From an uncultured Christensenellaceae bacterium (lineage in GTDB: Bacteria > Bacillota > Clostridia > Christensenellales > Borkfalkiaceae): DNA of 64,000 nt. The notes under the pieces were generated by a model. That model did not search any database. It worked only from the letters and a program-made list of their open reading frames with translations, and was not told the origin of the DNA. Both the position numbers and the translations under genes were made by a program. The stretch is from contig CAJUPX010000005.1 in assembly GCA_910588685.1 (NCBI GenBank), positions 28,544 through 92,543 on the forward strand. Reading direction: 5' to 3'. Positions 4,193 through 48,733 of this stretch are shown here, piece after piece; within the stretch, counting starts at the first letter, position 1, and the number at the start of each line of letters is the position of its first letter.

Positions 4193-4219
4193 TTTGTCCG
4201 TACAAAATGTACGTACAAA
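4193..4219. promoter_or_regulatory. Palindrome copy 4: TTTGTCCGTACA-AAA-TGTACGTACAAA
   Basis: One arm mismatch. Lies about 35 nt upstream of the MORN gene start. Confidence 0.55.
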
Positions 4220-4505
4220 CAAAAATGGGTAATGAAGCCAATATGACAACATTACCCATACGGAAACCATTATTTACATTGACTAACACACACACTTATT
4301 TAACCACACACTCCTTAAAAAAATAAAAGTGTGTGTTGAACAAGCCAACACACACTCATCTTCTGAGTTTCATTGGTGAAAAGCCGTATTGACTTGTTCA
4401 CCTAAATTTTACACTAACAATTTTTGCGAGATATATAAAACATATCTATATCTCACTATGCTACGAGTAGCCAAGTTCGTCCACACAGTGAAAAATATAA
4501 GTAAA

Positions 4506-19671: not shown

Positions 19672-19835
19672 CTAAAAAACGCAGAGATGCGGTGCTACCA
19701 AGCAGAGCATAAAAACTCAGAGAAGCGAGCAGTTCAAGGCGCACAAACAACGACTGACGGGAGTGTACAAAGACGTACACGACCGAAACGGTGCGCAGTG
19801 CAACGCCGAATTGAGACGCTTATATGAGTTTTTTT
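19672..19835. repeat. Family-1 long-hairpin repeat, copy A (full unit 19711-19835 preceded by a half-unit)
   Basis: Ends AAAAACTCAGAGAAGCG...CGCTTATATGAGTTTTT are inverted repeats. Central hairpin is GTGTAC-AAAGAC-GTACAC. The unit ends 3 nt from the rpmJ stop. Confidence 0.75.
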
Positions 19836-19837
19836 AA

Positions 19838-19954
19838 TTAGCCCTGGCGCTGCTTATGCGACTTATTCTTGGAACAAATCACCATAACTTTGCCGTTTCT
19901 TTTAATAACTTTGCATTTATCGCACATAGGCTTTACAGAAGGTCTGACTTTCAT
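19838..19954 (-). CDS. rpmJ: 50S ribosomal protein L36
   Basis: Own translation: [38 protein letters not shown] (38 aa). Too short to appear in the ORF track. Confidence 0.9.
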
Positions 19955-20063
19955 AATAAAATTCTCCTTGTATGTTTCGCATAAAGACCGGCGCAGCAAC
20001 GCCGCGGCTTTTTCGATTTGAGGCGATATGCCTCTTATGACCGTTTCAAAACAAACGTAACGT

Positions 20064-20285
20064 TTAGTTTTTGGAACGCCAGGTTATTCTGCCTTTTGTT
20101 AAATCGTAGGGACTCATTTCGAGTTTTACGTTGTCGCCCTCGATTATACGGATATAATTAAGGCGCAGCTTACCGGAAATATAGGCGGTTATCACGTGCC
20201 CGTTGGTAAGCTTTACTTTGAAGTTTGCATTAGGAAGGCACTCGATTACTTTGCCCTCTGTTTCGATAACGTCGTCTTTGGACAT
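20064..20285 (-). CDS. infA: Translation initiation factor IF-1
   Basis: 73 aa with an S1-like fold: [16 protein letters not shown]. Confidence 0.95.
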
Positions 20286-20288
20286 TAT

Positions 20289-20597
20289 TTACTCCTTATT
20301 TGACTTAATTTCGCCCGAATCGGGTTTGGGATAATTATAGCTTTTGAGCGCAGAATAGATTTCCGTATCGAAAACCTGTCTGCCGTCCAGAATTTTAGCG
20401 CCTATCGATTCCGATTTTTCGGGTAAAAGATATAGATGTTTTACGTTCTTTTTTTTGGGCGATTGCAGCTTTTTGAAATTGCCGTCGGTTAAGTACACAA
20501 CGTCGTTTTCAATAGCGCAAATAATATAATACCTGCCCTCGTCTCTGCCTTGGGTGCTTTTGCAAATGCCGCCTATGACAGGAGTTTTAAGTTTCAT
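20289..20597 (-). CDS. KOW-domain RNA-binding protein (map-infA intergenic gene typical of Clostridia)
   Basis: GRDEGRYYIIC KOW-like motif. Conserved position between map and infA. Confidence 0.65.
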   Translation of the reverse strand: MKLKTPVIGGICKSTQGRDEGRYYIICAIENDVVYLTDGNFKKLQSPKKKNVKHLYLLPEKSESIGAKILDGRQVFDTEIYSALKSYNYPKPDSGEIKSNKE

Positions 20598-20613
20598 AAA
20601 TTCCCTTTTTAAA

Positions 20614-21360
20614 TCAGAGCGTTAAAATTTCTACGCCGTCCTCTTTAATAAGTACGGTATTTTCATAATGAGCCGCGGGCTTTCCGTCCGCCGTTGTAAC
20701 CGTCCAGCCGTCCGCGTGATTCATATTGACTTTGTAAGTGCCCATATTTATCATAGGCTCTATACAGATGGTCATTCCGGCTTTGAGCCGCATACCCGCG
20801 CCGCGCCTGCCGTAGTTGGGAACGGAGGGGTCTTCGTGCATTTGTCTGCCGATACCGTGCCCCGTAAGCGCTCTCACCACGCCGTAGCCGTTGGCTTCCG
20901 CGTGAGTCTGCACCGCGTGTCCTATATTGAACAGGGGAACGCCCGCCTGCAAACCCTCTACCGCTTTGAAAAAACACTCCTCGGTTACTCTGACGAGCCG
21001 CCTTTTCTCTTCCGACACGTTGCCGATAAGAAAGGTTCTCGCCGCGTCGCCGTGAAATCCGTTTTTTTCGGCGGTTATGTCAACGCTTACTATGTCGCCG
21101 TCGAGCAAAACCCGGTCGCCGGGTATACCGTGCACGACAACTTCGTTGACCGATACGCAGGAACTCGCGGGATAACCCTCGTAGCCGAGCTCCGACGGAT
21201 ATGCGCCGCAGGACGTTATATACTTGTTTACAAGCGTATCCACGTCTTTGGTAGTCATACCAGCGCAAATATTCTTGCCTACAAATTCGAGCGTTTCTTT
21301 GACTATGCGGCAACTCTCGCGCATATAGGCGATTTCCTGCTCGCTTTTTACGGTAAACAT
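20614..21360 (-). CDS. map: Type I methionine aminopeptidase
   Basis: Metal ligands D..D..H..E..E within VHGIP, DIVSVD, GHGIG and IEPM segments. Confidence 0.95.
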   Translation of the reverse strand: MFTVKSEQEIAYMRESCRIVKETLEFVGKNICAGMTTKDVDTLVNKYITSCGAYPSELGYEGYPASSCVSVNEVVVHGIPGDRVLLDGDIVSVDITAEKNGFHGDAARTFLIGNVSEEKRRLVRVTEECFFKAVEGLQAGVPLFNIGHAVQTHAEANGYGVVRALTGHGIGRQMHEDPSVPNYGRRGAGMRLKAGMTICIEPMINMGTYKVNMNHADGWTVTTADGKPAAHYENTVLIKEDGVEILTL

Positions 21361-21983
21361 CAGTGACCCAAAACCTTGCAGATTTGTTCAAAAACAAGGT
21401 CGGGGCTGCCCTCGCCGCTCTTTACAACCGCAAGCTTGCCCTGCGCTTTGTAGTAGTCGATAAGCGGCGCCGTCTGGGTATTGTAGGTATCGAGCCTTGC
21501 CTTTACCGTTTCGGGATTGTCGTCCGCACGCTGATAGAGCTCTTTTCCGCATTTTGCGCACGTCGTCGCGCCGTTTAAGGTTGAAACGTGGTAGCTTTCG
21601 CCGCAGGAGCAAACGCGTCTGCCGCAAATTCTGTCCATCAGAAGCGCTTCTTCAACGTCGATATTGAGGCATAAATCTATGTGCGCGAATTTATCGAGCT
21701 CCTGCGCCTGAAACAGGTTGCGGGGAAAACCGTCGAGCATATAGCCGTGACGTGCGTCGTCCCAGGTAAGTCTGTCCTTTACAATATCGCAGGTTACAGA
21801 ATCGGGAACGAGCTTGCCCGCGTCTATATACGACTTGGCGATTTTACCTATCTCCGTGCCGCCCTTGATATTGGCGCGGAAAATGTCGCCGGTGGATATA
21901 TGAAGTAATTTGTATTTTCCGGCAATTTTACTTGCCTGCGTTCCCTTGCCTGCGCCGGGAGCGCCGAGTAATATAATGTTCAT
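21360..21983 (-). CDS. adk: Adenylate kinase (zinc-lid type)
   Basis: GAPGAGKGTQ P-loop. Lid with CSCG...CAKCG. Confidence 0.95.
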   Translation of the reverse strand: MNIILLGAPGAGKGTQASKIAGKYKLLHISTGDIFRANIKGGTEIGKIAKSYIDAGKLVPDSVTCDIVKDRLTWDDARHGYMLDGFPRNLFQAQELDKFAHIDLCLNIDVEEALLMDRICGRRVCSCGESYHVSTLNGATTCAKCGKELYQRADDNPETVKARLDTYNTQTAPLIDYYKAQGKLAVVKSGEGSPDLVFEQICKVLGH

Positions 21984-22000
21984 AAATTAATTAATTTTAT

Positions 22001-22158
22001 AAAACTCAAACGAGCAGAACATAACCACCCGTTGTTATAAAACGCAGAGAAGCGAGCAGAACGAGGAGCGTGAGCATTGACCGAAAGGAGTGTACATAGG
22101 CGTACACAACTGAGGCAAGCGGAACGCGACAAAGTTATACGACGCTTATATGCGTTTT
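22001..22158. repeat. Family-1 long-hairpin repeat, copy B (full unit 22039-22158 preceded by a half-unit)
   Basis: Ends AAAACGCAGAGAAGCG...CGCTTATATGCGTTTT. Central hairpin GTGTAC-ATAGGC-GTACAC. Lies in the secY-adk spacer. Confidence 0.75.
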
Positions 22159-22176
22159 GCGGGAGCAAAAGGATTT

Positions 22177-23547
22177 TTATTTTAAAAATCCTTTATAATT
22201 CTTCATCATAAGCTGCGACTCGAGCTGCTTATCAAGCTCTAACGCAACCGAAACTACGATGAGGATACCCGTTGTGGAGAACACCGACAGAAGGGAAATA
22301 TCCGGAACGCCGACGCCCGTTAATATCATTGAAAGTATTGACGGAATAAACGCGACGAGCGAGAGATAAATTGCGCCGAAAAGCGTTATTCTGTTGGAAA
22401 TTTTCTTTAAATAGTCCGCGGTGGGTTTGCCGGGGCGTATGCTCTTTAACGTACCGCCGTTCTGCTGAATGGTCCTCGAAACTTCGTCGGGGTCAAACTG
22501 CATCGACTGATAGAAGAACGCGAAAGCAAATATAAGAAGGCAAAGAATTACCATATATATAAGCTGACCGTACCAAGCCGTGGAAGAACCCGAGAACCAT
22601 TTTGCAAGCCAGTTGGCAAAGCCGCTTTCCGGCCAGAAAAGACTGGTGAGCATCTGGGGGAAAGAGATAAGCGCAAACGCGAAGATTAAAGGCATAACGC
22701 CGGAACCGGATATACGCATAGGGATAACCGAAGTTTGTCCGCCGTACATCTTTCTGCCCTTGACCTGTTTTGCATACGTTACGGGTATTTTTCTCTCCGA
22801 TAAGTCTACGGTTACTATAGCCGCAAACTCGACTACCGTAAGGATTACAAACCCTATAAGAACCCAAAGCGAAGTTAAATTACCTTTAAAAACGTCAACG
22901 AATTTGTCTACTATTGCAAGACCCGCAGTAGAAAGTATACCCACGAAAATAAGTATGGATATACCGTTTGAAATTCCGTACTCGGTAATTCTCTCGCCTA
23001 TCCACATTACGAGCATTGCGCCCGCAGTATACACGACCGCGAGGAAGAAACCGGCTATAATTTTTGCGCCGAGCTCGCTTACGATGCTCTTGGAGGGGTC
23101 GTTTACGAAATATCCGAACGTTTCAAGTCTTATAGCGTCGCCCTGAATACCGAAGTTTACGATTATACCTATCGCCTGTGCAATAGCAAGGGCAATGGTT
23201 ACGTAACGGGTTATCTGCGCGATTTTCTTTCTGCCCTCTTCGCCCTGTTTGGAAAGACGCTCGAGGGGAGGAATACCTACCGTCAACAGCTGGATAATAA
23301 TCGAAGCGTTGATATAAGGGCTTATACCGAGTGCAAACAGCGTTGCGTTCTGCAACGAGTCGCCCGTTATGGACGATAAAAGTCCTAAAAAGCTGTTGGA
23401 CTCTATCGCCGTTTTGAATTGACCTACTTCTATGCCCGGTACGGGGATATAGCAGCCCAAACGGAAGATGAGAAGAAGCAATAAGGTTATCCAGATCTTC
23501 TTTCTTATCTCCTTTATTTTAAAACACTTCTTTATTGTTTCAAACAT
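22177..23547 (-). CDS. secY: Preprotein translocase subunit SecY
   Basis: 10-TM profile, GISPYI motif, and position between rplO and adk. Confidence 0.95.
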   Translation of the reverse strand: MFETIKKCFKIKEIRKKIWITLLLLLIFRLGCYIPVPGIEVGQFKTAIESNSFLGLLSSITGDSLQNATLFALGISPYINASIIIQLLTVGIPPLERLSKQGEEGRKKIAQITRYVTIALAIAQAIGIIVNFGIQGDAIRLETFGYFVNDPSKSIVSELGAKIIAGFFLAVVYTAGAMLVMWIGERITEYGISNGISILIFVGILSTAGLAIVDKFVDVFKGNLTSLWVLIGFVILTVVEFAAIVTVDLSERKIPVTYAKQVKGRKMYGGQTSVIPMRISGSGVMPLIFAFALISFPQMLTSLFWPESGFANWLAKWFSGSSTAWYGQLIYMVILCLLIFAFAFFYQSMQFDPDEVSRTIQQNGGTLKSIRPGKPTADYLKKISNRITLFGAIYLSLVAFIPSILSMILTGVGVPDISLLSVFSTTGILIVVSVALELDKQLESQLMMKNYKGFLK

Positions 23548-23593
23548 CTTGTACCTCTTTTAAAAGCGGTGCCGGGATAAACTAATTAATATC

Positions 23594-24043
23594 TCAGCCG
23601 ATTGTTTCGCAAGTGCCGCCGGCTTTTTCAATTGCCTCTTTAGCGCTTGCGGAGAATTTTGCAGCCTTGACGGTGAGAGCAACTTTAACCTCTCCCGTGC
23701 CTAAAACCTTGAGCCCTGCGGAGTTTTTAACCGCCTTGCAGAGTCCGTTTTCCGATACGTATGCAAAATCAACTACCGTACCCGCGGGTACTTTTTCAAG
23801 TTGGCTCAAATTGATTACGGTGTAAACCGTAGCCCACTTGTTGTGGAAGCCGCGTTTGGGAATTCTTCTTGCAAGAGGCATCTGACCGCCCTCGAAACCG
23901 GGACGTACGCCGCCGCCTGAACGTGCCCACTGACCTTTATGTCCTTTGCCGGAGGTTTTGCCCGTTCCCGAGCCGATACCTCTGCCAAGTCTTTTAACCG
24001 GCTTTGTTGCACCCTCTGCGGGTGATAAAGTATCTATTCTCAT
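23594..24043 (-). CDS. rplO: 50S ribosomal protein L15
   Basis: RLGRGIGSGTGKTSGKGHKGQ motif. Confidence 0.95.
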   Translation of the reverse strand: MRIDTLSPAEGATKPVKRLGRGIGSGTGKTSGKGHKGQWARSGGGVRPGFEGGQMPLARRIPKRGFHNKWATVYTVINLSQLEKVPAGTVVDFAYVSENGLCKAVKNSAGLKVLGTGEVKVALTVKAAKFSASAKEAIEKAGGTCETIG

Positions 24044-24173
24044 AAAAATCTCCTTTTCGTGAAAATCTCGGTAAAACCTCGATTATTCACGAGATTGCTG
24101 CAGTCGTAAAACGCTTTACGGCGGAAATAAATCCCGCCTTGCGTTTTTCGCGCAAACAATTTATTAATTCTCC

Positions 24174-24347
24174 TTAAACCTTTTCAACCTTTACGAGGTG
24201 GGAAACCTTTTTAAGCTGACCCATATTTGCGGGTGTTTCCTCCAAGGTTCTGGATTGACGTATTTTTTTAAGTCCGAGCGCGGCAACCGTAGCTTTTACG
24301 GATTCAATTTCGCCGATTACGCTCTTTACTAACGTTACTTTAACCAT
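24174..24347 (-). CDS. rpmD: 50S ribosomal protein L30
   Basis: Own translation: MVKVTLVKSVIGEIESVKATVAALGLKKIRQSRTLEETPANMGQLKKVSHLVKVEKV (57 aa). Too short to appear in the ORF track. Confidence 0.9.
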   Translation of the reverse strand: MVKVTLVKSVIGEIESVKATVAALGLKKIRQSRTLEETPANMGQLKKVSHLVKVEKV

Positions 24348-24358
24348 AAATTGCCTCC

Positions 24359-24892
24359 TTATTTAAGCTCGTCTACGCTCTTTCCGCGTGCCGCAGCAAT
24401 CTCTTCGGGAGATTTAAGCTCGTAAAGTCCGTATACAGCCGCTTTTACGCAGTTGATGGGGTTGGACGTTCCGTGCGACTTGGTTCTTACGTCTTTAACG
24501 CCTGCAGCCTCCATAACCGCACGGACGGGACCGCCCGCTATAACGCCGGTACCTTCTGCGGCGGGCATCATAAGCACGCTGCCTCTGCCGAAAGTGCCGA
24601 GCACGGTATGGGGAATTGACGTTTCGCTGAGAGCAACCTTTTTCATATTTCTCTTAGCCTGAGCGTTAGCTTTTTCGATTGCATCGGGAACTTCCTTGCT
24701 TTTGCCCATTCCGTAGCCTACGGAGCCCTTGCCGTCGCCCACTACTACGAGCGCGGCGAAACGCATATTTCTGCCGCCTTTAACGGTTTTGGATACTCTG
24801 TTAACCTGAATGAGCTTTTTGATTAAGCCGTCGTCCTCCTGCCTTCTTCTATCATTATTTCTTCTTGCAGGTCTTTCTTTCCTTTCTTCCAT
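24359..24892 (-). CDS. rpsE: 30S ribosomal protein S5
   Basis: [16 protein letters not shown] motif. Start set at MEERKE (ATG 24890-24892), downstream of the rplR stop; the tracked ORF is over-extended. Confidence 0.93.
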
Positions 24893-24902
24893 AATAAGCT
24901 CC

Positions 24903-25271
24903 TTAGAAATTGAGTCCGGCTTCTCTTGCGCCGTCTGCCACTGCCTGTACGCGTCCGGTATAGAGGTATCCGCCTCTGTCGAAAACAACCGTTTCGATAC
25001 CGAGCTTTTTAGCCTTGGCTGCAACTGCCTTGCCGACTTCCTTAGCGGCGTCGGTCTTGGACATATCGCCTATCTTTGCCTTTACTTCCTTTTCCATTGT
25101 GGAAGCCGAGCAAAGCGTAACGCCTTTAACGTCGTCTATTACCTGAGCATAAATGTGATTAAGGCTTCTGTAAACGCTGAGACGGGGACTTTCCGCCGTG
25201 CCCTTTATCTTTTTGCGGACGCGCGCGTGTCTTCTCAGACGCTCTTCGTTTTTATCGATTTTTTTAATCAT
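24903..25271 (-). CDS. rplR: 50S ribosomal protein L18
   Basis: [12 protein letters not shown]...PRL.V.RS motif. Start at MIKKID with RBS GGAGAT. Confidence 0.93.
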
Positions 25272-25334
25272 AATATCTCCTTTAAGCAAGCAACCCTACC
25301 GGGTTTTTGTTCGCATCGGGATTATCCCGCGGAA

Positions 25335-25883
25335 TTACTTCTTGCCCTTGCCTCCCGTCTTGCCTTCCTTACGCTCGATTACTTCGTCGGAATAAGCTAT
25401 GCCGTATCCGTGGTAAGGTTCGGGAATTCTGAGTTTTCTTATGTTTGCGGCTACCTGACCGACAGCCGTTTTGTCTATGCCGGAAACAACGATTTCGTTG
25501 GGGCCGGGGCATTCTAACTTAACGCCGTCCGATTCAACGAAGTCAACGGGGTGCGAGAAACCAATGTTCAATACGATTTTGTTGCCCTGTTTTGCAACCT
25601 TCCAGCCTACGCCGTGTACTTTGAGCGACTTTTTGTAGCCCTCGGACACGCCTACTACCATATTGTGAAGAAGCGCGCGGTACAGTCCGTGTTTTGCGTC
25701 TGTGCCTGCCTTTTCGCTCGTTTTTAATACGTGGGCAACGCCCGCTTCAACTTTTATATCGATATCGCCTACGACTTGCTGCGTGAGCGTACCCTTAGAA
25801 CCCTTTACTGTCAAGAGCCCGTTTTCAAACGTTACGGAAACTCCTGCGGGCAGAGCTACGGGTAATTTACCAATTCTTGACAT
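25335..25883 (-). CDS. rplF: 50S ribosomal protein L6
   Basis: MSRIGKLPV start; 182 aa. Confidence 0.95.
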   Translation of the reverse strand: MSRIGKLPVALPAGVSVTFENGLLTVKGSKGTLTQQVVGDIDIKVEAGVAHVLKTSEKAGTDAKHGLYRALLHNMVVGVSEGYKKSLKVHGVGWKVAKQGNKIVLNIGFSHPVDFVESDGVKLECPGPNEIVVSGIDKTAVGQVAANIRKLRIPEPYHGYGIAYSDEVIERKEGKTGGKGKK

Positions 25884-25895
25884 ATAATTACCTCC

Positions 25896-26288
25896 TTACC
25901 AGATGTAGCACAGCAATTCGCCGCCTACGTTCTGAGCTTTTGCCTGCTTATCCGTGAGTATTCCTTTATTTGTGGAAAGTATGGCAATTCCGAGTCCGTC
26001 CATAACCCTGGGCATTTTTTCCACGTCGGAATAAACGCGCAGACCGGGACGGGATACTCTCTTTAACCCGTTTATTACGGGCTTTTTCTTACCGGAGTAT
26101 TTAAGAGTTAAAACCAACTTTCCGTTAAATTCGTCTTTTTCAAGTTTTACGTCGGAAACGTATCCCTCGGCAAGCATAATCTCAGCTATTGCCTTTTTCA
26201 TATTGGATGAGGGAATCTCAACCGTCTCCTTATTAGCCGCGAGAGCGTTTCTCACGCGGGTGAGCATATCTGCGATGGGATCTGTCAT
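25896..26288 (-). CDS. rpsH: 30S ribosomal protein S8
   Basis: [15 protein letters not shown] start. Confidence 0.95.
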
Positions 26289-26303
26289 TTTATTCTCCTC
26301 CTA

Positions 26304-26489
26304 TTACCAGCTCGACTTTTTAACGCCGGGAATCTGTCCCTTGTAAGCAAGATTTCTGAAACAGATACGGCACACGCCGTACTTTCTGAGTACCGCGTGC
26401 GGTCTGCCGCAGATGGAGCATCTCGTATAAGCTCTCGTTGAGTATTTAGCAGGTCTTTGCTGCTTGTTTATCATTGATTTCTTTGCCAT
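26304..26489 (-). CDS. rpsZ: 30S ribosomal protein S14, type Z (zinc-binding)
   Basis: 61 aa with CSICGRP...CRIC. Confidence 0.95.
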
Positions 26490-26498
26490 ATTTACTCC

Positions 26499-27341
26499 TT
26501 ACTTCTTAAAGGGCATTCCCATAGCCCTTAAAAGCTCTCTTGCTTCTTCGTCCGTATTTGCAGTGGTTACTATGCAAATATCCATACCCCTGATTTTCTC
26601 AACCTGGTCGTACTGAATTTCGGGGAATATAAGCTGTTCCTTAATACCCATACAGTAGTTTCCCCTGCCGTCGAAACTGTCGGCGGGCACGCCCCTGAAG
26701 TCGCGCACGCGGGGGAGAGCTATGGATACGAACTTGTCGTAGAAATCGCACATCATCTTGCCGCGGAGCGTAACTTTAAGTCCTATGGGCATTCCCTCGC
26801 GGACTTTGAAGTTAGCAACCGATTTTTTAGCTTTGCAGAGAATGGGTTGCTGTCCGGTAATCTGCTTCAACTCGTTCTGCGCAATCTGAATGGATTTGGA
26901 GTTGTCCTTTATGTCGCCGAGACCCGAGCTGATAATAATCTTAACGATTTTAGGTACCTGCATAGGGTTCTTGTAACCGAATTTAGCCACAAGCGCAGGC
27001 ACAGCCTGCTTTTCGTACATCTCCTGTATTCTCGACGAATATACTTTTTCGGCTTTGGGAGCTTTTGCCTTTTTTCCGGCGGCAGGCTTTTTAACCTCAG
27101 CCTCAGGCGCCTTTTCAGCGGGAGCTTTTGCAGCGGCGGGCTTTTTAGCCGCAGCCGGCTTCTTCTCCGCAGCGGGTTTTTCGGCAGCTACGCTCTTTTT
27201 AGCTGCGGCGGGTTTCTTTTCTGCCGCGGGCTTTTCAGCTGTTTCGCTCTTTTTAGCCGTTGTTGTCTTTTTTACGGCGGGCTTTTTAACCTCTTCGGTT
27301 TGCGCCGCTTTTACTTCCGTTTCCGTTTTCTTAGTAGCCAA
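26499..27341 (-). CDS. rplE: 50S ribosomal protein L5 with an approximately 95-aa Lys/Ala/Pro-rich N-terminal extension
   Basis: The C-terminal 180 aa are canonical L5 (MQVPKI.KI, GNY..GI.EQ.IFPEI). The ORF stays open upstream to a TTG at 27339-27341 with RBS GGAGGTG 5 nt away. No usable start exists at the canonical position. Confidence 0.8.
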
Positions 27342-27352
27342 CTCGCACCTCC

Positions 27353-27781
27353 TTATTCAGCCTTGTCGCCCGTTTCTTCGGGTGCGGCTTCTTCTTTCTT
27401 GGCGCGTTTTCTTACGCGCTTTTTGGGTTCCGCAGCCTTTGCAGCGGTTTTAGCGCCCTTGCCCGCATACGCCTTATCTAACGTTGCGCCGCATTTGGGG
27501 CATACCCTGTGTTTTTTACCCTCGACTACGGAGTATTTTACTCTTATAGCCTTGGAGCACGAATCGCAAACTACCATTACGTTGGAAACGTCTATGGGCG
27601 CTTCTTTTTCAACGATTTGCGAAACTTCGTTCGCCTTTCTCGCTTTCTGCGCCTTTTTACGCACGTTTACGCCTTCTACGGTTACTCTGCCGCTTTTGGG
27701 AGAAGTGGCAACTACTTTGCCCTGCTTGCCCGCATACTTACCGGTGATAACCACTACATTATCATTCAATTTTACGTTCAT
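27353..27781 (-). CDS. rplX: 50S ribosomal protein L24 with a Cys4 motif and a basic C-terminal tail
   Basis: KOW motif [10 protein letters not shown]. The C-terminus carries CDSC...CPKC and then about 40 K/A/E-rich residues (142 aa, versus about 103 aa typical). Confidence 0.9.
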
Positions 27782-27795
27782 AGCTTTCTCCTTAA

Positions 27796-28164
27796 TTACA
27801 GCACTTCGGGTGCGAGGGAAATAATTTTCATATAATTCTTCTCGCGAAGTTCCCTTGCAATCGGTCCGAAGATACGCGTGCCGCGCGGTTCTTTATTTGT
27901 GTTGATAATTACGGCTGCGTTGTCGTCGAAACGGATATACGTTCCGTCGTCGCGTCTTATGCCTTTTTTGGTGCGTACTATAACGGCTTTAACTACTTCG
28001 CCTTTCTTTACCGCGCCGCCGGGTGCAGCCGTTTTTACCGAGCAGACGATAACGTCGCCTATGTTGGCAAATTTACGGAAGCTTCCGCCGAGCACTTTTA
28101 CGCACATAAGCTCTTTTGCGCCGCTGTTGTCCGCGGCTTTGAGCCTCGTTTGAGGTTGTATCAT
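27796..28164 (-). CDS. rplN: 50S ribosomal protein L14
   Basis: [17 protein letters not shown] start, set at ATG 28162-28164 with RBS AGGAGA. The tracked ORF is over-extended. Confidence 0.95.
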
Positions 28165-28329
28165 AAAAATTCTCCTATTTTTGAACTTACAACTTGTCTG
28201 ACGGCTGAATATTTCCGCCAAACTTTTTTAAGAGGATTGTTCCCCGTATACATAAGCGAAGTTGAGCGCCCCGCTCTCCATTATACGGCGGTTACAATCA
28301 TTACACCGGGTATATCATAACCCAAATCT

Positions 28330-28486
28330 ATAAAATGCGGAGAAGCGAGTTGCCCCGACTCCCCTAAAAACTCAGAGAAGCAAGCAAGACAAGGAAAGCG
28401 AGGAAACCCCGAGGGAGTTCACTATGCGTAAATGACCGAGGGTTGCCGCAACTTGACAATGTATTGCGTAGCTTATATGAGTTTTT
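28330..28486. repeat. Family-1 long-hairpin repeat, copy C (full unit 28366-28486 preceded by a half-unit)
   Basis: Ends AAAAACTCAGAGAAGCA...GCTTATATGAGTTTTT. Core is CCGAGGGAGTTCACTATGCGTAAATGACCGAGGG. The unit ends 2 nt from the rpsQ stop. Confidence 0.75.
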
Positions 28487-28487
28487 A

Positions 28488-28748
28488 TTATTTTGCTTTT
28501 TCGATAATTTCCGCAACGCGCCAATTCTTATCCTTGGACAGCTTGCGCGTTTCTACTATTCTTACCGTATCGCCTTCGCCGCACTCGTTGTTTTCGTCGT
28601 GTGCTTTAAAGCGCGTGGTTTTGGTTATAGTCTTTTTATAAAGCGGATGTTTACGGTTTTCTCTTACCGCAACTACAACCGTTTTATCCATTTTGTCGGA
28701 AACAACTATGCCGACTCTTTCCTTTCTGAGCGTGGTTCTGTTTTCCAT
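28488..28748 (-). CDS. rpsQ: 30S ribosomal protein S17
   Basis: [14 protein letters not shown] motif. Confidence 0.95.
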
Positions 28749-28759
28749 ATTGTTCCTCC

Positions 28760-28954
28760 TTACGCCTTTAACTGCCTTGCGCGGATAACCGTGTTAACTC
28801 TTGCGATATCCTTTTTAACGAGGTTTATCGACATAGGGTTTTCGAGCTGGCTGCTTGCGTGGCGAAAGCGCAGATTGAAAAGTTCGCTTTTGAGTTCCTG
28901 TAATTTTTTCAAGAGCTCTTCATCGCTCAAATTTATTATTTCGTTAGCCTTCAT
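28760..28954 (-). CDS. rpmC: 50S ribosomal protein L29
   Basis: [30 protein letters not shown]. The ATG at 28952-28954 overlaps the rplP end. A TTG at 28972 is an alternative start. Confidence 0.9.
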
Positions 28955-29387
28955 TAGCGTCACCGCCTTCAACTTCTACAGTTTCTTTTTTTACGAATTT
29001 GCATTTAACGGGCAATTTATGGCTTGCAAGTCGCATTGCCTCGCGCGCAATATCCTCGTTGACGCCCGCCATTTCAAACATAACTCTGCCGGGTTTTACG
29101 ATAGCTACCCAGTACTCTACCGAGCCTTTACCGGAACCCATACGGGATTCTGCGGGGTGCTTGGTAATGGGCTTGTGCGGGAATATGTCTATCCATACTT
29201 TACCGCCGCGCTTGATGAATCTGGTCATTGCGATACGGGCAGCCTCTATCTGGTTGGATGTAATTCTCGCGCCCTCCAAAGCCACAAGACCGTACTCGCC
29301 GTATGCAACCTTGTTGCCTTTCTGCGCTTTGCCGCGGATTTTGCCGCGGTGCTGCATTCTTCTTTTAACTCTCTTGGGGATTAACAT
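28944..29387 (-). CDS. rplP: 50S ribosomal protein L16
   Basis: [15 protein letters not shown] start. The ATG overlaps the rpsC stop (TAATG). Confidence 0.95.
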
Positions 29388-30058
29388 TACTCTTCGCCTC
29401 CCTCCGATATAATCATACGTTTTGCAACGTCGAGCACCTCGCCCTTGTATATCCAGCATTTAATGCCGAGAACGCCGAACGTGGTGTGCGCTTCCGCAAA
29501 GCCGTAGTCGATGTCCGCGCGGATGGTCTGAAGAGGAATAGAGCCCTCGTGGTAGCTTTCGCTGCCGGCGATTTCTCTGCCGTCGAGTCTGCCGCCGACG
29601 GTGATTTTAACGCCCTTTACGCCCGTTTTTGCAACCTTTGCAATCTGCTGCTTAACGGCTCTTCTGTAACTTACGCGCTTTTCAAGCTGGGAAGCAACCG
29701 CTTCCGCAACGAGCTGTGCGTCCTGGTCGATTTTTTCAACCTTTTTGACGTTGATGATAACCTGCTTGCCTTTGGTGAGCTTTGCAAGGTCTTTTTTGAT
29801 AACTTCTATTTCAGAACCGCCTTTGCCGATAAGCACGCCGGGTCTGCCGGTATAAATGCCTATTTCGATTTTATTAGCGGCTCTTATTATTGTGATTTTG
29901 CTTATTGCAGCGTCGTAATATTTCTTTTTAAGAAAGGTACGGATATCGCTGTCCTCTTTGATATAAGCGGAAAAATCCTTTTTATCCGCATACCACTGAG
30001 TATCCCAAGCGGAAATTACGCCGACTCTTAAACCGTGAGGATTAACTTTTTGTCCCAT
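29387..30058 (-). CDS. rpsC: 30S ribosomal protein S3
   Basis: [13 protein letters not shown] start with a KH domain. Confidence 0.95.
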
Positions 30059-30072
30059 AATTCTTTAACTCC

Positions 30073-30462
30073 TTAAACCTTCTTTGCGTCAAGTATGACG
30101 GTTACGTGACTCGTTCTCTTTAAAATAGCGTGTCCGCGCCCCTTGGAAACGGGCTGCATTCTTTTAAGATGAGGACCGCCGTCGGCATAAGCCTCGGCAA
30201 CTACGAGGTCGCCTCTGTCCATACCGTTGTTGTGCTCGGCGTTAGCCGCCGCGGAAAGCAGCACCTTTTTAACTTCTTCGCTGCCGCCCTTGTTGCAATA
30301 AGTGAGTATAGCTTCGGCTTCTTCTACGGATTTACCGCGGATAAGCGCAAGTACCGTCCTGATTTTATAGGGTGATATTCTGAGATGCTTTGCCGTTGCA
30401 TAAGGGCGTCTGTCCTTAATTTCGGCAATTCTCTCAACTTTTTTATTCATATTGCTTGCCAT
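30073..30462 (-). CDS. rplV: 50S ribosomal protein L22
   Basis: Contains the RISPYK.R segment. Position between rpsS and rpsC. Confidence 0.93.
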   Translation of the reverse strand: MASNMNKKVERIAEIKDRRPYATAKHLRISPYKIRTVLALIRGKSVEEAEAILTYCNKGGSEEVKKVLLSAAANAEHNNGMDRGDLVVAEAYADGGPHLKRMQPVSKGRGHAILKRTSHVTVILDAKKV

Positions 30463-30474
30463 ATCTCAAACTCC

Positions 30475-30747
30475 TTACTTCTTGGCGGTTTTCGCCGCGT
30501 GTCCCTTGAAAGTTCTGGTGGGAGCAAACTCGCCGAGCTTGCAGCCTACCATATCTTCGGTCACGTATACGGGAACGTGTTTTCTTCCGTCGTAAACCGC
30601 AATAGTGTGTCCTACCATCTGGGGGAATATCGTTGTCGCACGCGACCAAGTTTTTACAACTTTCTTCTCGCCGGCAGCGTTCATCGCCTCAATCCTCGCC
30701 AACAGTCTTTCTTCGGCGTAAGGTCCTTTTTTAACGCTTCTTGACAT
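30475..30747 (-). CDS. rpsS: 30S ribosomal protein S19
   Basis: [10 protein letters not shown] start; [17 protein letters not shown]. Confidence 0.95.
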
Positions 30748-30760
30748 TTTCTATTCCTCC

Positions 30761-31588
30761 TTAATTAATTCTCTTTAATATGAACTTGGAAGTGGGGTTC
30801 TTCTTCTTTCTCGTCTTATAGCCGAGAGCAGGCTTGCCCCAAGGGGTCATAGGTCCTGCGTGTCCCACAGGGCTCTTGCCTTCGCCGCCGCCGTGAGGGT
30901 GGTCGTTGGGGTTCATAACCGAACCGCGGACGGTGGGACGGATACCGAGGTATCTCGTTTTGCCCGCTTTACCCACTCTGATAATCTCGTGCTCGAGGTT
31001 GCCTACCTGACCGACCGTAGCTTTGCATTTAAGCGATACGAGTCTCATCTCGCCCGAAGGCATTTTGATGGTTGCATATGCGCCCTCTTTTGCCATTATC
31101 TGGGCGGAAATACCCGCAGACCTTGCAATCTGCGCGCCCCTGCCGGGTTTAAGCTCTATTGCGTGCACGACGGTACCTACGGGGATATCCGCAAGGCAGA
31201 GCGCGTTGCCGCTCTTGATGTCGGCGTTTGCGCCCGAAAGCACCTTGTCGCCCACGTTAAGACCTACGGGAGCGAGGATATACCTCTTTTCGCCGTCGGC
31301 ATATGCAAGGAGCGCGATGTGCGCCGAACGGTTGGGATCGTACTGTATGGATTTAACCGTTGCGGGAATGCCGTCCTTGTTGCGCTTGAAGTCGATTATT
31401 CTGTATTTGTTTCTGTTGCCGCCGCCGATGTGACGAACGGTTATTTTACCCTGATTGTTTCTGCCGCCCGATTTGCGCTTGTCGTGCATTAAGGCTCTTT
31501 CGGGTTTGTCGCCGGAAAGCTCCTTATATGCGCTGACCGTCATTAAACGGCGCGCAGGAGAGGTCGGTTTATACCTTTTAACTGCCAT
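30761..31588 (-). CDS. rplB: 50S ribosomal protein L2
   Basis: [13 protein letters not shown] start and GGG.G motifs; 275 aa. Confidence 0.95.
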
Positions 31589-31608
31589 TTTTAGTGCCTC
31601 CTTGCTCC

Positions 31609-31902
31609 TTACGATAACGAGTCGAAGTACTCAATCGTCTTGGACTCGGCTTTGAGCTGGACGATAGCCTTCTTGTAGTCGGGAGTGTAACCTTGGTTTC
31701 TTCCCATTCTCTTAAGCTTGCCCTTGCAGTTTACGGTGTTCACGCTTTCAACCTGAACTCCGAACAGCTTTTCTACGGCGAGCTTTATCTGCGTTTTGTT
31801 GGCCGACTTTTTAACGATGAACGTGTATTTTTTATCGGCGATTCCGTCGTACCCCTTCTCGGTGAGCAGAGGTTTTACAATTATATCTTCGGCAAACGTC
31901 AT
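31609..31902 (-). CDS. rplW: 50S ribosomal protein L23
   Basis: 97 aa. IVKPLLTEK and KY.F.V motifs. Confidence 0.93.
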
Positions 31903-32525
31903 TTCCCGTAAACCTCCTCGATTTTCTGTATAGCCGCTTTGGTTACTACGACCTTTGCGTTTGCAACCACCTCGTACGTGGAAATCTGAGCCACGGGAAG
32001 CGTGGAAAGCGTTTGAATATTCTGCGCCGCGCGGATTACGCCGATATCGTCGTTATCCATAACGATAACCGCCGTTTTGTCGAGCTTAAGCGCTTTCTGG
32101 AATGCAACCATCTCTTTGGTTTTGCCCTCTTTTACGGAAAGGCTGTCCACTACGACGAGCTCGCCGTCGGCAACCTTTTTGGAGAGAGCCGAAATAAGAG
32201 CGGCGGTTTTTGCTTTTTTATTCATATCCTTGGAAAAGTCACGGCTCTTGGGAGCGAACACAACGCCGCCCTTTATCCACTGGGGAGCTCTTATAGATCC
32301 CTGGCGGGCATTACCCGTGCCCTTCTGACGCCAGGGCTTTCTGCCGCCGCCGCGGACTTCCGTTCTGGTAAGAGTGGATTTTGTACCCTGTCTTTCGTTT
32401 GCAAGACGGGTTACTACCGCCTGGTGAATAAGCGGTTCGTTATATTCCGCACCGAAAACCTTGTCGCTGAGCGTCAAAGTGCCGGCTTTCGTTCCGTCCA
32501 TTTTATATACGTTTACGTTAGGCAT
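31899..32525 (-). CDS. rplD: 50S ribosomal protein L4
   Basis: RGGGRKPWRQKGTGNARQGS motif. Confidence 0.95.
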   Translation of the reverse strand: MPNVNVYKMDGTKAGTLTLSDKVFGAEYNEPLIHQAVVTRLANERQGTKSTLTRTEVRGGGRKPWRQKGTGNARQGSIRAPQWIKGGVVFAPKSRDFSKDMNKKAKTAALISALSKKVADGELVVVDSLSVKEGKTKEMVAFQKALKLDKTAVIVMDNDDIGVIRAAQNIQTLSTLPVAQISTYEVVANAKVVVTKAAIQKIEEVYGK

Positions 32526-32539
32526 ATTCTGTTACCTCC

Positions 32540-33211
32540 TTATTTAACGGTGTCGTTTATGGTAACGACCGAACCGTTGGGTCCGGGAACCGAACCTTTA
32601 ATAAGCAAGCAGTTTCTCTCTGCGTCTACTTTTACTATTTCGAGGTTCTGAACGGTTACGTTTTCCACACCGTACTGACCTGCGAGATGCTTGTTCTTGA
32701 AAACTCTCGAAGGCGAGCTGTTCGCGCCCATTGAGCCGGGCTCTCTGTGCACGGGACCTACGCCGTGCGTTTCTTTGAGCCTGTGCTGATTCCAGCGCTT
32801 GATAACGCCGCTGTAACCGTGACCCTTGGATACGCCGTGAACGTCCACTCTGTCGCCTGCCGTAAACACGGTAGCTTTGACTTCGTTACCGACCGCGTAT
32901 TCCGCTACGTTTGCAAGACGGAACTCCTTTAATACCTTGCAGGGAGTTACTCCCGCTTTTTTGAACTGACCGTAATCGGGCTTGTTCAAACGATATTTCC
33001 TGTTTGCGTCCTTGTCTTTGAGGTTTTTCTTACTCTTTGCTTCGATAGCGTCAAAACCGAGCTTTAAAGCCGAATAGCCGTCCTTTTCAACGGTTTTGAT
33101 TTGCACTACCGGGCAGGGACCCGCTTCTATTACGGTTACGGGGATAACCTTGCCCTCCGCCGTAAATATCTGCGTCATACCCGCTTTACGGCCGATGATT
33201 GCTTTATTCAT
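32540..33211 (-). CDS. rplC: 50S ribosomal protein L3
   Basis: [16 protein letters not shown] start, set at ATG 33209-33211 with RBS AAGGAG. The tracked ORF is over-extended into the repeat-filled spacer. Confidence 0.95.
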
Positions 33212-33348
33212 TGATAAAGATCTCCTTAAAAAATTAATATATTTCCACAAAAATCTCGTGCAGTGACACTGCGATTTTTCGTGGTTCGGGAGACTCTGCC
33301 TCCCTGCCCGCAATCAGCAGGGCTCTAATATATATAATTGCGGGCATT

Positions 33349-33426
33349 CCCTCCGCCGAGGCGCAGGTTTGCGCAAATGGGGTTGCGCTGCGCAAAAGCG
33401 CGGTTTTGCTTGCGCCGTAATTTATA
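33349..33426. repeat. Family-2 repeat, copy 1 (rpsJ-rplC spacer)
   Basis: About 80% identical over about 78 nt to 36538-36617. Shared core: GAGG(C/T)GCAGGTTTGC(G/A)CAAAT...GCGGTTTT(T)GCTTGCGCCGT. Confidence 0.65.
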
Positions 33427-33558
33427 TATCCGAGTACCGCCTTTACAGGCTATTTCCGAGATACCGCGCTCCGCCGTCCCGCCGGAAAACCCGTCGCCTG
33501 CTTTACGTAGAGTATCTATGTTGGCTGATTATTATATATATATGGTAATACGGTTTAC

Positions 33559-33677
33559 CAAACTCAGAGATGCGGTGCTATGCAAGGCGGGCGAGAAAAC
33601 CCGAGGGAGTTTACTAAGTCGTAAATAACCGAGGGTTGCCGCAGTCCAACGCCACAGAGCGCCGTATATATGAGTTT
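33559..33677. repeat. Family-1 long-hairpin repeat, copy D
   Basis: Ends CAAACTCAGAGATGCG...GCCGTATATATGAGTTT. Core is CCGAGGGAGTTTACTAAGTCGTAAATAACCGAGGG. The unit ends 9 nt from the rpsJ stop. Confidence 0.75.
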
Positions 33678-33685
33678 AGCAAGAA

Positions 33686-33985
33686 TTAGAGTTTTATCTT
33701 AATATCTACGCCCGCGGGAAGATGCACCGTATCCAACAACTTAGCGTTGGGCGTGTAGATGTCGATAATTCTCTTATAGGTGCGCTGCTCGAACTGTTCG
33801 CGGCTGTCCTTATATTTGTGAGGGGAACGGAGAATTGTTACTATTTCTCTTTCAGTGGGAAGAGGAATGGGTCCCGATATTTTTGCACCGCTCTTTTTCA
33901 TTGTTTCAACTATTCTCGACGCCGCTAAATCCACCAGCTCGTGGTCGTATGCCGCAAGCTTTATTCTGATTTTCTGTCCTGCCAT
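33686..33985 (-). CDS. rpsJ: 30S ribosomal protein S10
   Basis: [13 protein letters not shown] motif; 99 aa. Confidence 0.95.
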
Positions 33986-36417: not shown

Positions 36418-36537
36418 GCGAATAATTCTTCTCGTAAATTTTTATTTGCAGTGACAAATAAAAATTGTACGATTAGAGGAGCTCTGCTCCTCTTGCGCAA
36501 ATTTTTAAAGGCTCTGCAATATTTTATTTGCGCAATT

Positions 36538-36617
36538 CACCTCGCTGAGGTGCAGGTTTGCACAAATTGAGTGCGCTAAGCAAAAAACGCGGTTTTTGCT
36601 TGCGCCGTTTATTTATT
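36538..36617. repeat. Family-2 repeat, copy 2 (spacer between ppa and the next gene)
   Basis: See copy 1. Contains the hairpin CACCTC-GCT-GAGGTG, where copy 1 has CCTC-CGCC-GAGG. Confidence 0.65.
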
Positions 36618-47243: not shown

Positions 47244-47453
47244 TTATTCGTTTTCGCCGCCGCCCGTTTCGACAAACCAATCCTCTCTGGTGCATACATC
47301 GCCATTTGCGTTGATGTCCTCATAGGTCTTGCCGTCGAGGTCGTTTACCCAGATTTCCTGAGCGTCCTCAATTTCCTGTTGGGTCAAAATACCTTTTGCC
47401 CTGTCCTTGTTAGCCGATTGCAGCCACTTTTCTTTGCTGAATACCCTTGCCAT
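47244..47453 (-). CDS. Hypothetical small acidic protein
   Basis: 69-aa ORF overlapping the RT 3' end by 44 nt. Confidence 0.3.
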   Translation of the reverse strand: MARVFSKEKWLQSANKDRAKGILTQQEIEDAQEIWVNDLDGKTYEDINANGDVCTREDWFVETGGGENE

Positions 47454-48507
47454 CGTTGATGCCTCCGTTTAATTTTTTTGAGTGTTTACTTACTATGCTT
47501 TTTAATTTCCACTTTGGAGCAATCGGGTAAATTCGCTCCTTGTAGAATTTTAAGCCGTTAATGTGAGTTAGCCAGCCCGTAAGCGATAACAGCCCCTGAG
47601 CTTGCTTGACGGTTATGTGGTTCGCCTTTTTGACATTTCTCAGGCGGCGGCATAACCTGAAATAGATTTTCTTTCTGAGCAGTGTTTTGTTCTTGTAAAA
47701 ACGAAATCCCACAAAGTCTATCGGGCGGCTGTGAATTTTCCATATCTGGTAATTATCTTTCAGCTTTAAGCCGAGATTTGTTTTCAGGTACTCGTTCATT
47801 GCCTCAACAGCCCTGCGGAGCTTTCGTTTGTTTGTGCCGAATAACACCATATCGTCAACAAACCTTATGTAATCCTGCACCTTTAACTGCTCTTTCACAA
47901 AATGGTCGAATCTCTCTAAATAGAAATTGCTAAACCATTGAGAGGTGTAATATCCTATCGGGAGGCAGTCGCCGCCGTTCTCCAACACTTTCTCTATCAA
48001 CCGTAGAAATTTCTCGTCTTTGATTTTGCGCCTGAAAAGCGACATCAGGATTGCTGGCTTTACATTGTTAAAAAACTTTGATATATCCAGCTTAGCGACA
48101 TAGCGAGCCTTGCCCTGCTTGATAACACGCTCTATAAAGCGTTTTGCCTCCATACCGCCCCTGCTCGGTACGCTACCGCAGGAATATCGGTACATACCTT
48201 TCGTTATGACGGGCTCCACAACGAGCATAACCACCCAATGTATAATCTGGTCGGGATAAAATTTTGGTACCGTTATTATCCTCGTCTTTTCGCAGGAGCG
48301 GTCATATAGAGGGATTTGCTTGTTAGGGCTCAATATCACATCGCCCGTTTCAAGCATAGTCTTTATATTCTGTGCGTAGGTTTCAATATCGTTAAGGACT
48401 ACTGCAATATAGTCTTTTGTAGTCTTGCCCTGAGCGGCTTTATGTATCGCCAGCTTTATGAGGTCAAGATTTAACATCTTTTCGTATAGATAACCTACCC
48501 GTTTCAT
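47410..48507 (-). CDS. DGR-type reverse transcriptase (DGR-1)
   Basis: RT motifs RIITVPKFYPDQIIH, AKLDISKFF and YIRFVDDMVLFG (YxDD box). Has the DGR-diagnostic motif-4 IGYYTSQWFSN (I/LGxxxSQ). Lies adjacent to the TR. Confidence 0.9.
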   Translation of the reverse strand: MKRVGYLYEKMLNLDLIKLAIHKAAQGKTTKDYIAVVLNDIETYAQNIKTMLETGDVILSPNKQIPLYDRSCEKTRIITVPKFYPDQIIHWVVMLVVEPVITKGMYRYSCGSVPSRGGMEAKRFIERVIKQGKARYVAKLDISKFFNNVKPAILMSLFRRKIKDEKFLRLIEKVLENGGDCLPIGYYTSQWFSNFYLERFDHFVKEQLKVQDYIRFVDDMVLFGTNKRKLRRAVEAMNEYLKTNLGLKLKDNYQIWKIHSRPIDFVGFRFYKNKTLLRKKIYFRLCRRLRNVKKANHITVKQAQGLLSLTGWLTHINGLKFYKERIYPIAPKWKLKSIVSKHSKKLNGGINDGKGIQQRKVAAIG

Positions 48508-48624
48508 AACCTTTTAATCTTCTCACGGCGTTTCGAGATTTAACCTACTAAGCCGCCCTCTTATCGAAGTGTTTTTTGCCAAGAGGCAAGGATTGTGCGT
48601 GTTCCATAGACCAAGTAAAGATTA

Positions 48625-48733
48625 AAATGCGACCACCGATGTTCGAGTTCGAGTTAGACGAGTCATTGTTACCATTCCAATACCACAGACCGCCATTGAG
48701 CCTGTTGTTCCAATTACCGCCGACATTCAGCAC
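48625..48733 (-). repeat. DGR-1 template repeat (TR)
   Basis: 109 nt aligned to the VR at a +201 offset. All 17 mismatches fall on TR plus-strand T, which is A on the coding strand. In the VR frame it encodes an Asn-rich peptide, VLNVGGNWNNRLNGGLWYWNGNNDSSNSNSNIGGRIL. Confidence 0.9.

Follow-up and report, generated by a model that had tools for sequence, protein, structure and literature searches.

A family of sense-oriented hairpin repeats behind stop codons in operons of gut Christensenellales-like Clostridia

We analyzed a 64,000-nucleotide (nt) stretch of DNA (the window) from an uncultured Christensenellaceae bacterium (GCA_910588685.1, contig CAJUPX010000005.1, positions 28,544 to 92,543), in which an earlier note had described a long hairpin repeated in four spacers of the ribosomal-protein superoperon. 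We find that these hairpins belong to an uncatalogued family of ~118-nt imperfect palindromes in gut Christensenellales-like Clostridia. Sequence comparisons give good support to the view that the orientation, position and base pairing of the element are constrained at the level of the transcript, and that occupied sites persist. Our favored reading is that the family is a dispersed hairpin repeat of the REP/ERIC kind that is co-transcribed as an intercistronic RNA module with a putative function, and we give this reading about an even chance of being right.

A covariance model run with filters off returned exactly four matches in the window, the four copies already described, and these align with one another over ~118 nt. 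The copies score 98-118 bits on the minus strand, which is the mRNA-sense strand, against 17-24 bits on the plus strand, and the flanking genes, identified with NCBIfam, are all on the minus strand as well. Copy 1 (19711-19835; model match 19713-19831, 106.4 bits) lies between rpmJ and rpsM (L36 and S13) and reads 5'-AAAAAACUCAUAUAAGCG...CGCUUCUCUGAGUUUUU-3' in the mRNA sense, with the TAA stop codon of rpmJ (19838-19840) 2 nt ahead of the A-run that opens it. Copy 2 (22039-22158; match 22040-22157, 117.6 bits) lies between secY and adk (SecY and Adk), where the secY stop codon (22177-22179) is followed by an 18-nt stretch, AAAUCCUUUUGCUCCCGC (22159-22179 together with the stop codon), that contains a remnant of a different repeat family of the GCTCCCGCAAT type. 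Copy 3 (28366-28486; match 28368-28484, 116.1 bits) lies between rpsQ and rplN (S17 and L14), flanked by the rpsQ stop codon and a conserved rplN leader; the stop codon, TAA (28488-28490), is followed by a second TAA that merges into the A-run of the copy. Copy 4 (33559-33677; match 33560-33677, 98.3 bits) lies between rpsJ and rplC (S10 and L3), 8 nt behind the TAA stop codon of rpsJ (33686-33688), and represents a subfamily with the outer stem GGCGCUCUG...CAUAGCACCGC. The distance from stop codon to element is ~2-6, 18, 1-3 and 8 nt for copies 1-4, and the spacers measure 293, 193, 323 and 471 nt; the first three lengths agree with the initial description, which gave the last as 474 nt.

In the mRNA sense, the shared ends read 5'-AAACKCAUAUAWGCG...CGCWUCUCUGMGUUU-3', the reverse complement of the version described initially. 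Terminal 15-mers with up to three mismatches gave 9-10 matches, against 2.7-2.9 expected by chance, and all were confined to the four spacers. The direct CCGARRG repeats reported for the center of the element are clear only in copies 3 and 4. The extra half-units that had been noted are present, but they are solo 3'-terminal fragments of other subfamily members and stand downstream of the full copies in the mRNA sense. Behind copy 1 is a fragment ending in ...GGUAGCACCGCAUCUCUGCGUUUUUU (19674-19709, minus strand), assigned to a copy-4-like subfamily by sequence comparison with copy 4; behind copy 2 is a degenerate fragment with a small hairpin of its own (22001-22036, minus strand); and behind copy 3 is a fragment ending in ...GGGGCAACUCGCUUCUCCGCAUUUU (28332-28362, minus strand). 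When whole spacers were folded, the copy 1 hairpin survived in the rpmJ-rpsM spacer and copy 2 remained an independent module. We also considered masking of the downstream Shine-Dalgarno sequence by the element and rejected it; the context folds kept the hairpin independent and showed nothing convincing. A look-up with the exact SecY sequence recovered three independent assemblies, GCA_950097385.1 (an NCBI metagenome-assembled genome, MAG), ERZ17912887 (ENA) and the Logan assembly of SRR10593854. All three carry the same four copies with identical model scores, and therefore the spacers are not assembly artefacts, a possibility that the earlier note had left standing. The same look-up gave identical arrangements only, with no empty site among conspecifics.

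Beyond the window, we examined two sets of copies. The first, the genome set, comes from a single pattern scan in which both ends of the element served as anchors; it was run on species-representative genomes and covers at least 114 loci. All counts given for it are among the matches listed. It holds at least 127 full copies of ~118 nt in 56 species-level MAG assemblies, with up to 13 sampled per genome, and the median pairwise identity among these 127 is 67%. A 111-nt cyanobacterial match (L039; loci are cited by such numbers) was taken as a chance match and excluded from the alignment. The second, independent set consists of 80 ribosomal-operon loci that were fetched via SecY (56-80% identical to that of the window) and are free of the search pattern. 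Here the covariance model found 37 further copies, in metagenomic ribosomal-protein operons. Half-units like those in the window are infrequent outside it, a strict pattern finding them at 4 of 127 copies. The ribosomal superoperon is not a special site, as the initial description could have suggested, since the element also follows gyrB, secA, infB, clpP, ffh, queA and many other genes.

Nearly all hosts in the genome set are gut MAGs labeled Clostridia, Christensenella, Christensenellaceae, Borkfalkiaceae or Scatosoma. A separate hairpin subfamily occurs in MAGs labeled Tidjanibacter or Alistipes (Bacteroidota; Rikenellaceae), at L017, L029, L034, L037, L089 and L092. These copies also lie in the sense direction after stop codons of housekeeping genes such as queA, and they reflect either cross-phylum horizontal transfer or mis-binning. 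The element had no match among 4227 Rfam families at the gathering score and none at E<=5, viral contigs gave zero matches, and a literature search on the terminal sequences found zero papers containing them, which agrees with the earlier failure to assign the repeat to a known family. The sequence around the copies was covered as stretches of 8-20 kb, ~1.8 Mb in all. Within these stretches we found no longer element with matching ends that could be an autonomous insertion sequence, no distant end pairs, no opposite-strand end pairs except at the convergent genes of L034, and no partner transposase, including Y1.

The element folds end to end into a single irregular helix, and the covariation first seen among the window copies is strong in both sets. 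In the genome set, 93.5% of alignment cells are paired against 80.1% in shuffles, and 614 cells carry double changes against 191 in shuffles, a value reached by 0 of 500 shuffles. Of 24 pairs, RNAalifold found 18 with compensatory changes. Pairing reaches 91.9% of cells in the independent set (69.4% in shuffles), where the terminal pairs 1-7 vary freely, with 3-4 pair types each. Ends of the AAACGCA/UGCGUUU type are replaced by CCGUCGCA/UGCGACGG, UCGGCACA/UGUACCGA, AACUUCA/UGAAGUU and others. Because the terminal stem covaries and its sequence is free to vary, the family has no conserved terminal inverted repeats; the "inverted termini" of the initial description are the base of a covarying helix. 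The stop codon itself forms the first base pairs of this helix in ~40% of copies. The closing pair formed by the flanks is U-A in 81 and U.G in 32 of the 127 copies, so that the T...A flank (81/127; T...G in 32) behaves as one more base pair rather than as a TA duplication; filled and empty secY-adk sites are too diverged for base-by-base alignment. We considered a TA-duplicating miniature inverted-repeat transposable element (MITE) of the IS630/Tc1-like kind and ruled it out as the main reading, since the terminal stem covaries and the A or G of the right flank pairs with the left U. The same observations weaken the earlier suggestion of a MITE with a strong target preference.

Conserved features of the helix are an A-U pair between two U.C mismatches (CAUAUAWGC over GCWUCUCUG), the segment UCGCAAUAC, a lone G-C pair within an internal loop containing UCCUU and, at the tip, GGUCA...UAC and GUA...CUCC on either side of the loop. 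The two strands differ in several respects. All conserved mismatches are pyrimidine-pyrimidine (U.C-type) on the sense strand, which is 61.5% pyrimidine and carries about three CUCC, CCUC or UCCU words per copy. Each copy has on average 0.08 Shine-Dalgarno-like 4-mers in the sense strand and 3.11 in the antisense strand, and in 100 of the 127 copies the antisense strand also has strong Shine-Dalgarno-like 5-mers. In 111 of 127 copies the sense RNA is less stable than the antisense RNA, by a mean of 6.4 kcal/mol, and the fold z-scores of the window copies are -4 to -6.8 on the plus strand and -3.5 to -4.9 on the minus strand. Both differences arise because the U.C mismatches of the sense strand read as G.A on the antisense strand. 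Wobble pairs favor the sense strand, with 162 G.U against 74 A.C (p = 1e-8).

The orientation of the element relative to genes is nearly fixed. In the genome set, both neighboring genes point in the sense direction of the element at 96 copies and both are opposite at 3 (p = 5e-25), and in the independent set 36 copies are sense and one is antisense. The fixed orientation that had been noted in the window thus holds across the family, and a constraint at the level of the transcript is well supported. At L034, two convergent genes each carry a copy after their own stop codon. Convergent spacers are depleted of the element, with 96 of 101 copies between co-directional genes against 84.5% expected. 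Genes in the loci were called with a simple codon-bias caller, which reproduced the ribosomal operon correctly. Replication strand was estimated from GC skew; whole-locus skew was noisy and skew at third codon positions was dominated by codon usage and uninformative. An extended asymmetric target motif was considered as the cause of the orientation and rejected, as there is no consensus beyond T...A.

Position is constrained as well. In the genome set, the element starts -12 to +19 nt from the upstream stop codon in 89 of 111 copies (80%), and 48 copies overlap or directly abut that stop codon. For the copies that start in this range, the upstream stop codon is TAA in 82 of 85 cases, against 74% genome-wide, and in 3 copies a TAA internal to the element ends the open reading frame (ORF). 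Within its spacer, the median copy lies 0.9% of the way in, and 61 of 78 copies fall in the first tenth (Kolmogorov-Smirnov p = 1e-39); the median distance from the element to the next start codon is ~109 nt. In the independent set, the recurrently occupied junctions are rpsJ-rplC, rpsQ-rplN, rplF-rplR, rplO-secY, secY-adk, infA-rpmJ and rpmJ-rpsM. Tight junctions of 10-25 nt, which are numerous in the operon loci, are never occupied.

Occupied sites persist across species and genera, and copies behind the same gene in different genomes form two classes. The first class comprises true orthologues, which are reciprocal best matches and 0.91-1.0 identical. Their identity exceeds that of fourfold sites in the upstream gene (0.92 vs 0.44 for clpP, 0.91 vs 0.55 for gyrB, and 0.94 vs 0.68 in another case) and also exceeds that of the 60 nt that follow downstream; the few differences lie in loops or are compensatory in situ. 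The second class comprises replaced copies, in which same-site pairs are no closer than random members of the family (rank 50-120 of ~120). Replacement extends to genomes that are fairly close and share identical junctions (L027 and L090, for example), and the presence of unrelated subfamily members at shared sites points to re-insertion or gene conversion between copies. Pairs that are 95-99% identical also occur at unrelated loci of one genome. The earlier note had asked for empty orthologous sites, and five relatives (L031, L115, L118, L119 and L141) have an empty secY-adk junction, which reads TAA, 1-2 nt, ATG. Many others have a copy there, among them the two closest (SecY 89-90% identical), whose copies have yet other terminal stems and whose contigs break inside the element. 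Fragments, minis with internal deletions, and solo 5' and 3' ends occur elsewhere, rarely.

The fixed sense orientation, the position relative to ORFs, the covariation and the conservation of resident copies are consistent with a cis-acting mRNA element. Under our favored reading, that of a co-transcribed hairpin repeat, the DNA would spread as a non-autonomous repeat, through mobilization in trans, gene conversion between copies, or both. It would then be retained only where, and in the orientation in which, a co-transcribed hairpin is tolerated or useful; the copies kept would be those that form a pyrimidine-rich hairpin right behind a stop codon. With the stem-loop placed there, each terminating ribosome may open the base of the helix, which could determine how stable individual mRNA segments are or how they are processed, and shield the cistron that follows. 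The most likely activity would be an ERIC/REP-like control of segmental mRNA fate. The earlier note had suggested an RNA-level role; the transcript-level constraint that this entails is supported, and processing, stability or decay would be its putative outcome.

Several observations weigh against this reading. Many copies decay, as is evident from fragments, derivatives with internal deletions and solo ends, and around the copies we found neither a mobilizing enzyme nor an unambiguous insertion signature. The transcribed strand is the less stable one, as passive tolerance predicts and not as expected of an optimized RNA, and the excess of G.U over A.C could reflect a transcription-associated C-to-T bias. 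The lone antisense copy of the independent set (L126) occupies a site of this kind too, starting directly behind the secY stop codon, and orientation is therefore not mechanistically absolute. Finally, gene calls in the loci come from our own simple caller, and the RNA activity is putative.

The closest precedent is the ERIC/IRU repeat of Yersinia, an imperfect palindrome of ~120-127 nt that forms one long stem-loop, is co-transcribed next to stop codons, and has an orientation-dependent effect on the upstream transcript that was attributed to ribosome-induced opening of the hairpin (PMC2229807). It serves as the precedent for the ribosome-opened hairpin proposed here. The element described here resembles ERIC in length, in its end-to-end stem-loop and in its location in operons beside stop codons. 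Unlike ERIC, which occurs in both orientations with a conserved consensus, terminal inverted repeats and TA duplication, it is oriented 96:3, has covarying ends and Clostridia hosts, and shares no sequence similarity; at E<=5 in Rfam no described RNA or repeat family was matched, the enterobacterial 127-bp ERIC/IRU consensus included. In the way it evolves, the family recalls REP/BIME/REPIN, ERIC and Correia elements. REP, BIME and REPIN are likewise dispersed extragenic palindromes, which lie mostly downstream of coding regions, between co-directional or convergent genes. REPs, however, are not locked to one orientation, and a REPIN joins two inverted REPs of 20-40 nt, both of them palindromic and carrying a GTAG or CGTC tag as defined in PMC3733652, and is tied to a flanked RAYT gene. 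In our element the arms are not self-palindromic and there is no terminal tag of that kind. Pneumococcal BOX, RUP and SPRITE and the Neisseria Correia repeats are also small structured repeats that are transcribed together with genes; in 36 pneumococcal genes the stop codon comes from a BOX element (PMC3049150), and Correia hairpins are substrates of RNase III (PMC2229807). These families differ from ours in having conserved terminal inverted repeats, with TA duplications in RUP and Correia, and they are enriched between convergent genes, where our element is depleted, and lack a near-absolute orientation. We conclude that the orientation and stop-codon rules of the element are far stricter than in classical repeat families.

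A further parallel is the integron attC site, a 57-141-nt imperfect palindrome right after an ORF, with fixed orientation, structure conserved more than sequence, and strand-specific unpaired bases. Our element shares the palindrome after an ORF, the fixed orientation and the strand-specific mismatches. Unlike attC, it lacks RYYYAAC/GTTRRRY core sites, is not part of a cassette array or found in the context of an integrase, and lies within core operons such as S10-spc-alpha.

The main rival is a selfish MITE without any host role. Such a repeat would insert at T|A sites in either direction, and selection would then purge copies that create Shine-Dalgarno-like words or very stable hairpins or that separate a Shine-Dalgarno sequence from its start codon. 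In its plain form, with random orientation, random context and no covariation, which had been named as the outcome that would refute an RNA-level role, a randomly inserted MITE is excluded by the orientation, the position and the covariation of the copies. The purged form would account for more: pure tolerance explains both the orientation and the weaker sense fold, given that the antisense strand carries 3.1 Shine-Dalgarno-like 4-mers per copy, has strong 5-mers in most copies and forms the stabler RNA. The size and copy profile also fits, since the element is below 300 bp, non-coding, multi-copy and dispersed, and bacterial MITEs typically have T...A flanks and "TA at termini" (PMC2229807). 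No terminal inverted repeat of the transposase type exists, however, as the sequence of the terminal stem is unconserved, and none matching an insertion sequence was found in the ~1.8 Mb around copies; the flank acts as a U-A or U.G pair. The empty tight junctions, the antisense copy at a stop codon in L126 and the decaying fragments are all as tolerance predicts, yet copies sit in the first 1% of long spacers that offer other TA sites, and convergent spacers, where selfish repeats usually accumulate, are depleted. Tolerance also sits poorly with orthologous copies that are conserved far beyond fourfold sites, with compensatory changes, and with occupied sites that persist across genera despite bacterial deletion bias. 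On balance, we consider this rival somewhat unlikely.

A bolder extension of the favored reading treats the element as a mobile RNA module with its anchor in translation termination. A hairpin that has the stop codon in its base would be gated by the terminating ribosome, and this gating would control processing, decay or re-initiation at the next cistron, possibly via three anti-Shine-Dalgarno-like loops, and spread may target the untranslated, single-stranded non-template DNA just past stop codons. If this were true, insertion or retention would be coupled to transcription-translation geometry, which is undescribed for any bacterial repeat family. We regard this extension as speculative and unlikely.

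A single-strand-DNA hairpin transposon, REPIN/RAYT-like or IS200/IS605-like, could also produce oriented copies. A strand-specific HUH enzyme would read the folded strand, and orientation would follow the lagging-strand template or the non-template strand of transcription bubbles, matching gene direction only through them. The whole element is indeed a hairpin with conserved strand-specific mismatches, its covariation would fit selection on a folded intermediate in an active lineage, and copies on one contig all share their orientation. Long persistence would be REPIN-like too; REPINs are ~100-nt hairpins described as vertically persistent and evolving by compensatory change. The ratio of 96:3 nevertheless exceeds an assumed 85% co-orientation of genes with replication (p = 1e-4), and at L034 opposite copies follow convergent genes. 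The element has no conserved 4-5-nt target beside it, contains no small REP palindromes and lacks the terminal GTAG or CGTC tag of PMC3733652, and a Y1 transposase was not seen within the ~1.8 Mb around copies. We judge this explanation very unlikely.

An intrinsic terminator or attenuator, in which the long hairpin and a U-run partly terminate transcription between sub-operons, is more improbable still. The window copies do end in GAGUUUUU or GCGUUUU, and the occupied junctions coincide with classical sub-operon boundaries. The U-run merely pairs with the 5' A-run, however, and many members have a GC-rich terminal stem and no U-tract (CCGUCGCA...UGCGACGG AUACGG and others) with the remaining structure kept, so the hairpin with a conserved U-tract that defines such terminators is not found. 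The helix has the same base whichever way it is oriented, which leaves the orientation bias unexplained, and the essential downstream genes rplC, rplN and adk must still be transcribed. Independent antisense small-RNA genes on the better-folding plus strand are hardly credible, since the better z-scores and stabler RNA of that strand are explained by G.A in place of U.C mismatches, wobble pairs favor the sense strand, no promoter lies in or next to the 118-nt unit, and stop-codon anchoring makes sense on the sense strand alone.

REP, ERIC, Correia, BOX and other small palindromic repeats were recognized decades ago, and it is still argued whether they are parasites or regulators. The present family is an unusually clean case, combining near-absolute orientation, stop-codon anchoring, unconserved ends, strong covariation and conservation beyond that of synonymous sites, and dozens of its copies lie within essential operons of gut bacteria that are abundant but little studied. 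Should the hairpin act on mRNA, Christensenellales would have in it a widespread post-transcriptional device; if it is inactive, the family would be a clean demonstration that transcript-level selection shapes where and how repeats live. The repeats also have practical consequences, as they break short-read assemblies (contigs L198-L200 end inside a copy) and inflate spacers, which annotation pipelines may misread.

Other features share the spacers of the superoperon. A conserved structured leader lies at the S10|spc boundary upstream of rplN (~28175-28300, minus strand), with the layout GAUUG..GGAGAGCGG..CUCGCUUAUGU..GCAAUCCUCUG, then GUUGUAAGUUCA and a Shine-Dalgarno sequence. Its middle stem covaries, it is also present in L005, L045, L047, L115, L118, L124, L127, L138 and L198, and it has no match in Rfam, making it a candidate for a new ribosomal-protein leader. 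A conserved hairpin, GAUACU...CGCGGUAUC, upstream of rplC in the rpsJ-rplC spacer (~33400-33475, minus strand) is common to the window, L047 and L098 and may be another leader element. Further small repeats, of the GCTCCCGCAAT type, ACGGCGCAAGCAAAACCGCGCUUUUGCG, and CACGAAAAAU...AUUUUUGUGG just ahead of Shine-Dalgarno sequences, occur at 22159-22176, ~33395-33425, ~33235-33275 and 33321-33383 / 36510-36572 and in many loci; among these small families is a 63-nt repeat that is 71% identical between copies. Other genomes carry a GTCATTCTGAGCG..CGAAGAATC repeat family, and in one MAG the hairpin element is nested in a GCTCCCGC-type repeat.

Within the superoperon, the L5 gene (rplE, 26499-27341, minus strand) encodes an N-terminal extension of ~100 amino acids rich in Lys, Ala and Pro, specified by a tandem repeat with an 18-nt period (27116-27277); the L5 domain covers residues 103-280 only. 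The rplX-rplE spacer is short (8-124 nt) in most relatives, and the closest (L198) has a shorter rplE extension. Between map and infA lies a 102-amino-acid ORF (20289-20597, minus strand) that has no NCBIfam match and is conserved in relatives at 43-68% identity.

Elsewhere in the window, Rfam identified an RT-2 RNA (63459-63673, minus strand, 148.5 bits) beside an ORF at 62271-63551 and an RT-18 RNA (48511-48588, minus strand, 51.5 bits) beside an ORF at 47410-48507. These are probably reverse-transcriptase-associated RNAs in an apparent prophage region, with no relation to the hairpin family. A 109-nt direct repeat (48625-48733 and 48826-48934), 84% identical and spaced by 201 nt, immediately precedes the RT-18 region. 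Four copies of the palindrome TTGTCCGTACAAAATGTACGGACA (340-367, 1918-1945, 2251-2278 and 4194-4221) lie near a ParA-like ORF (622-1395) and resemble the operators or partition sites that belong to a plasmid or phage module.

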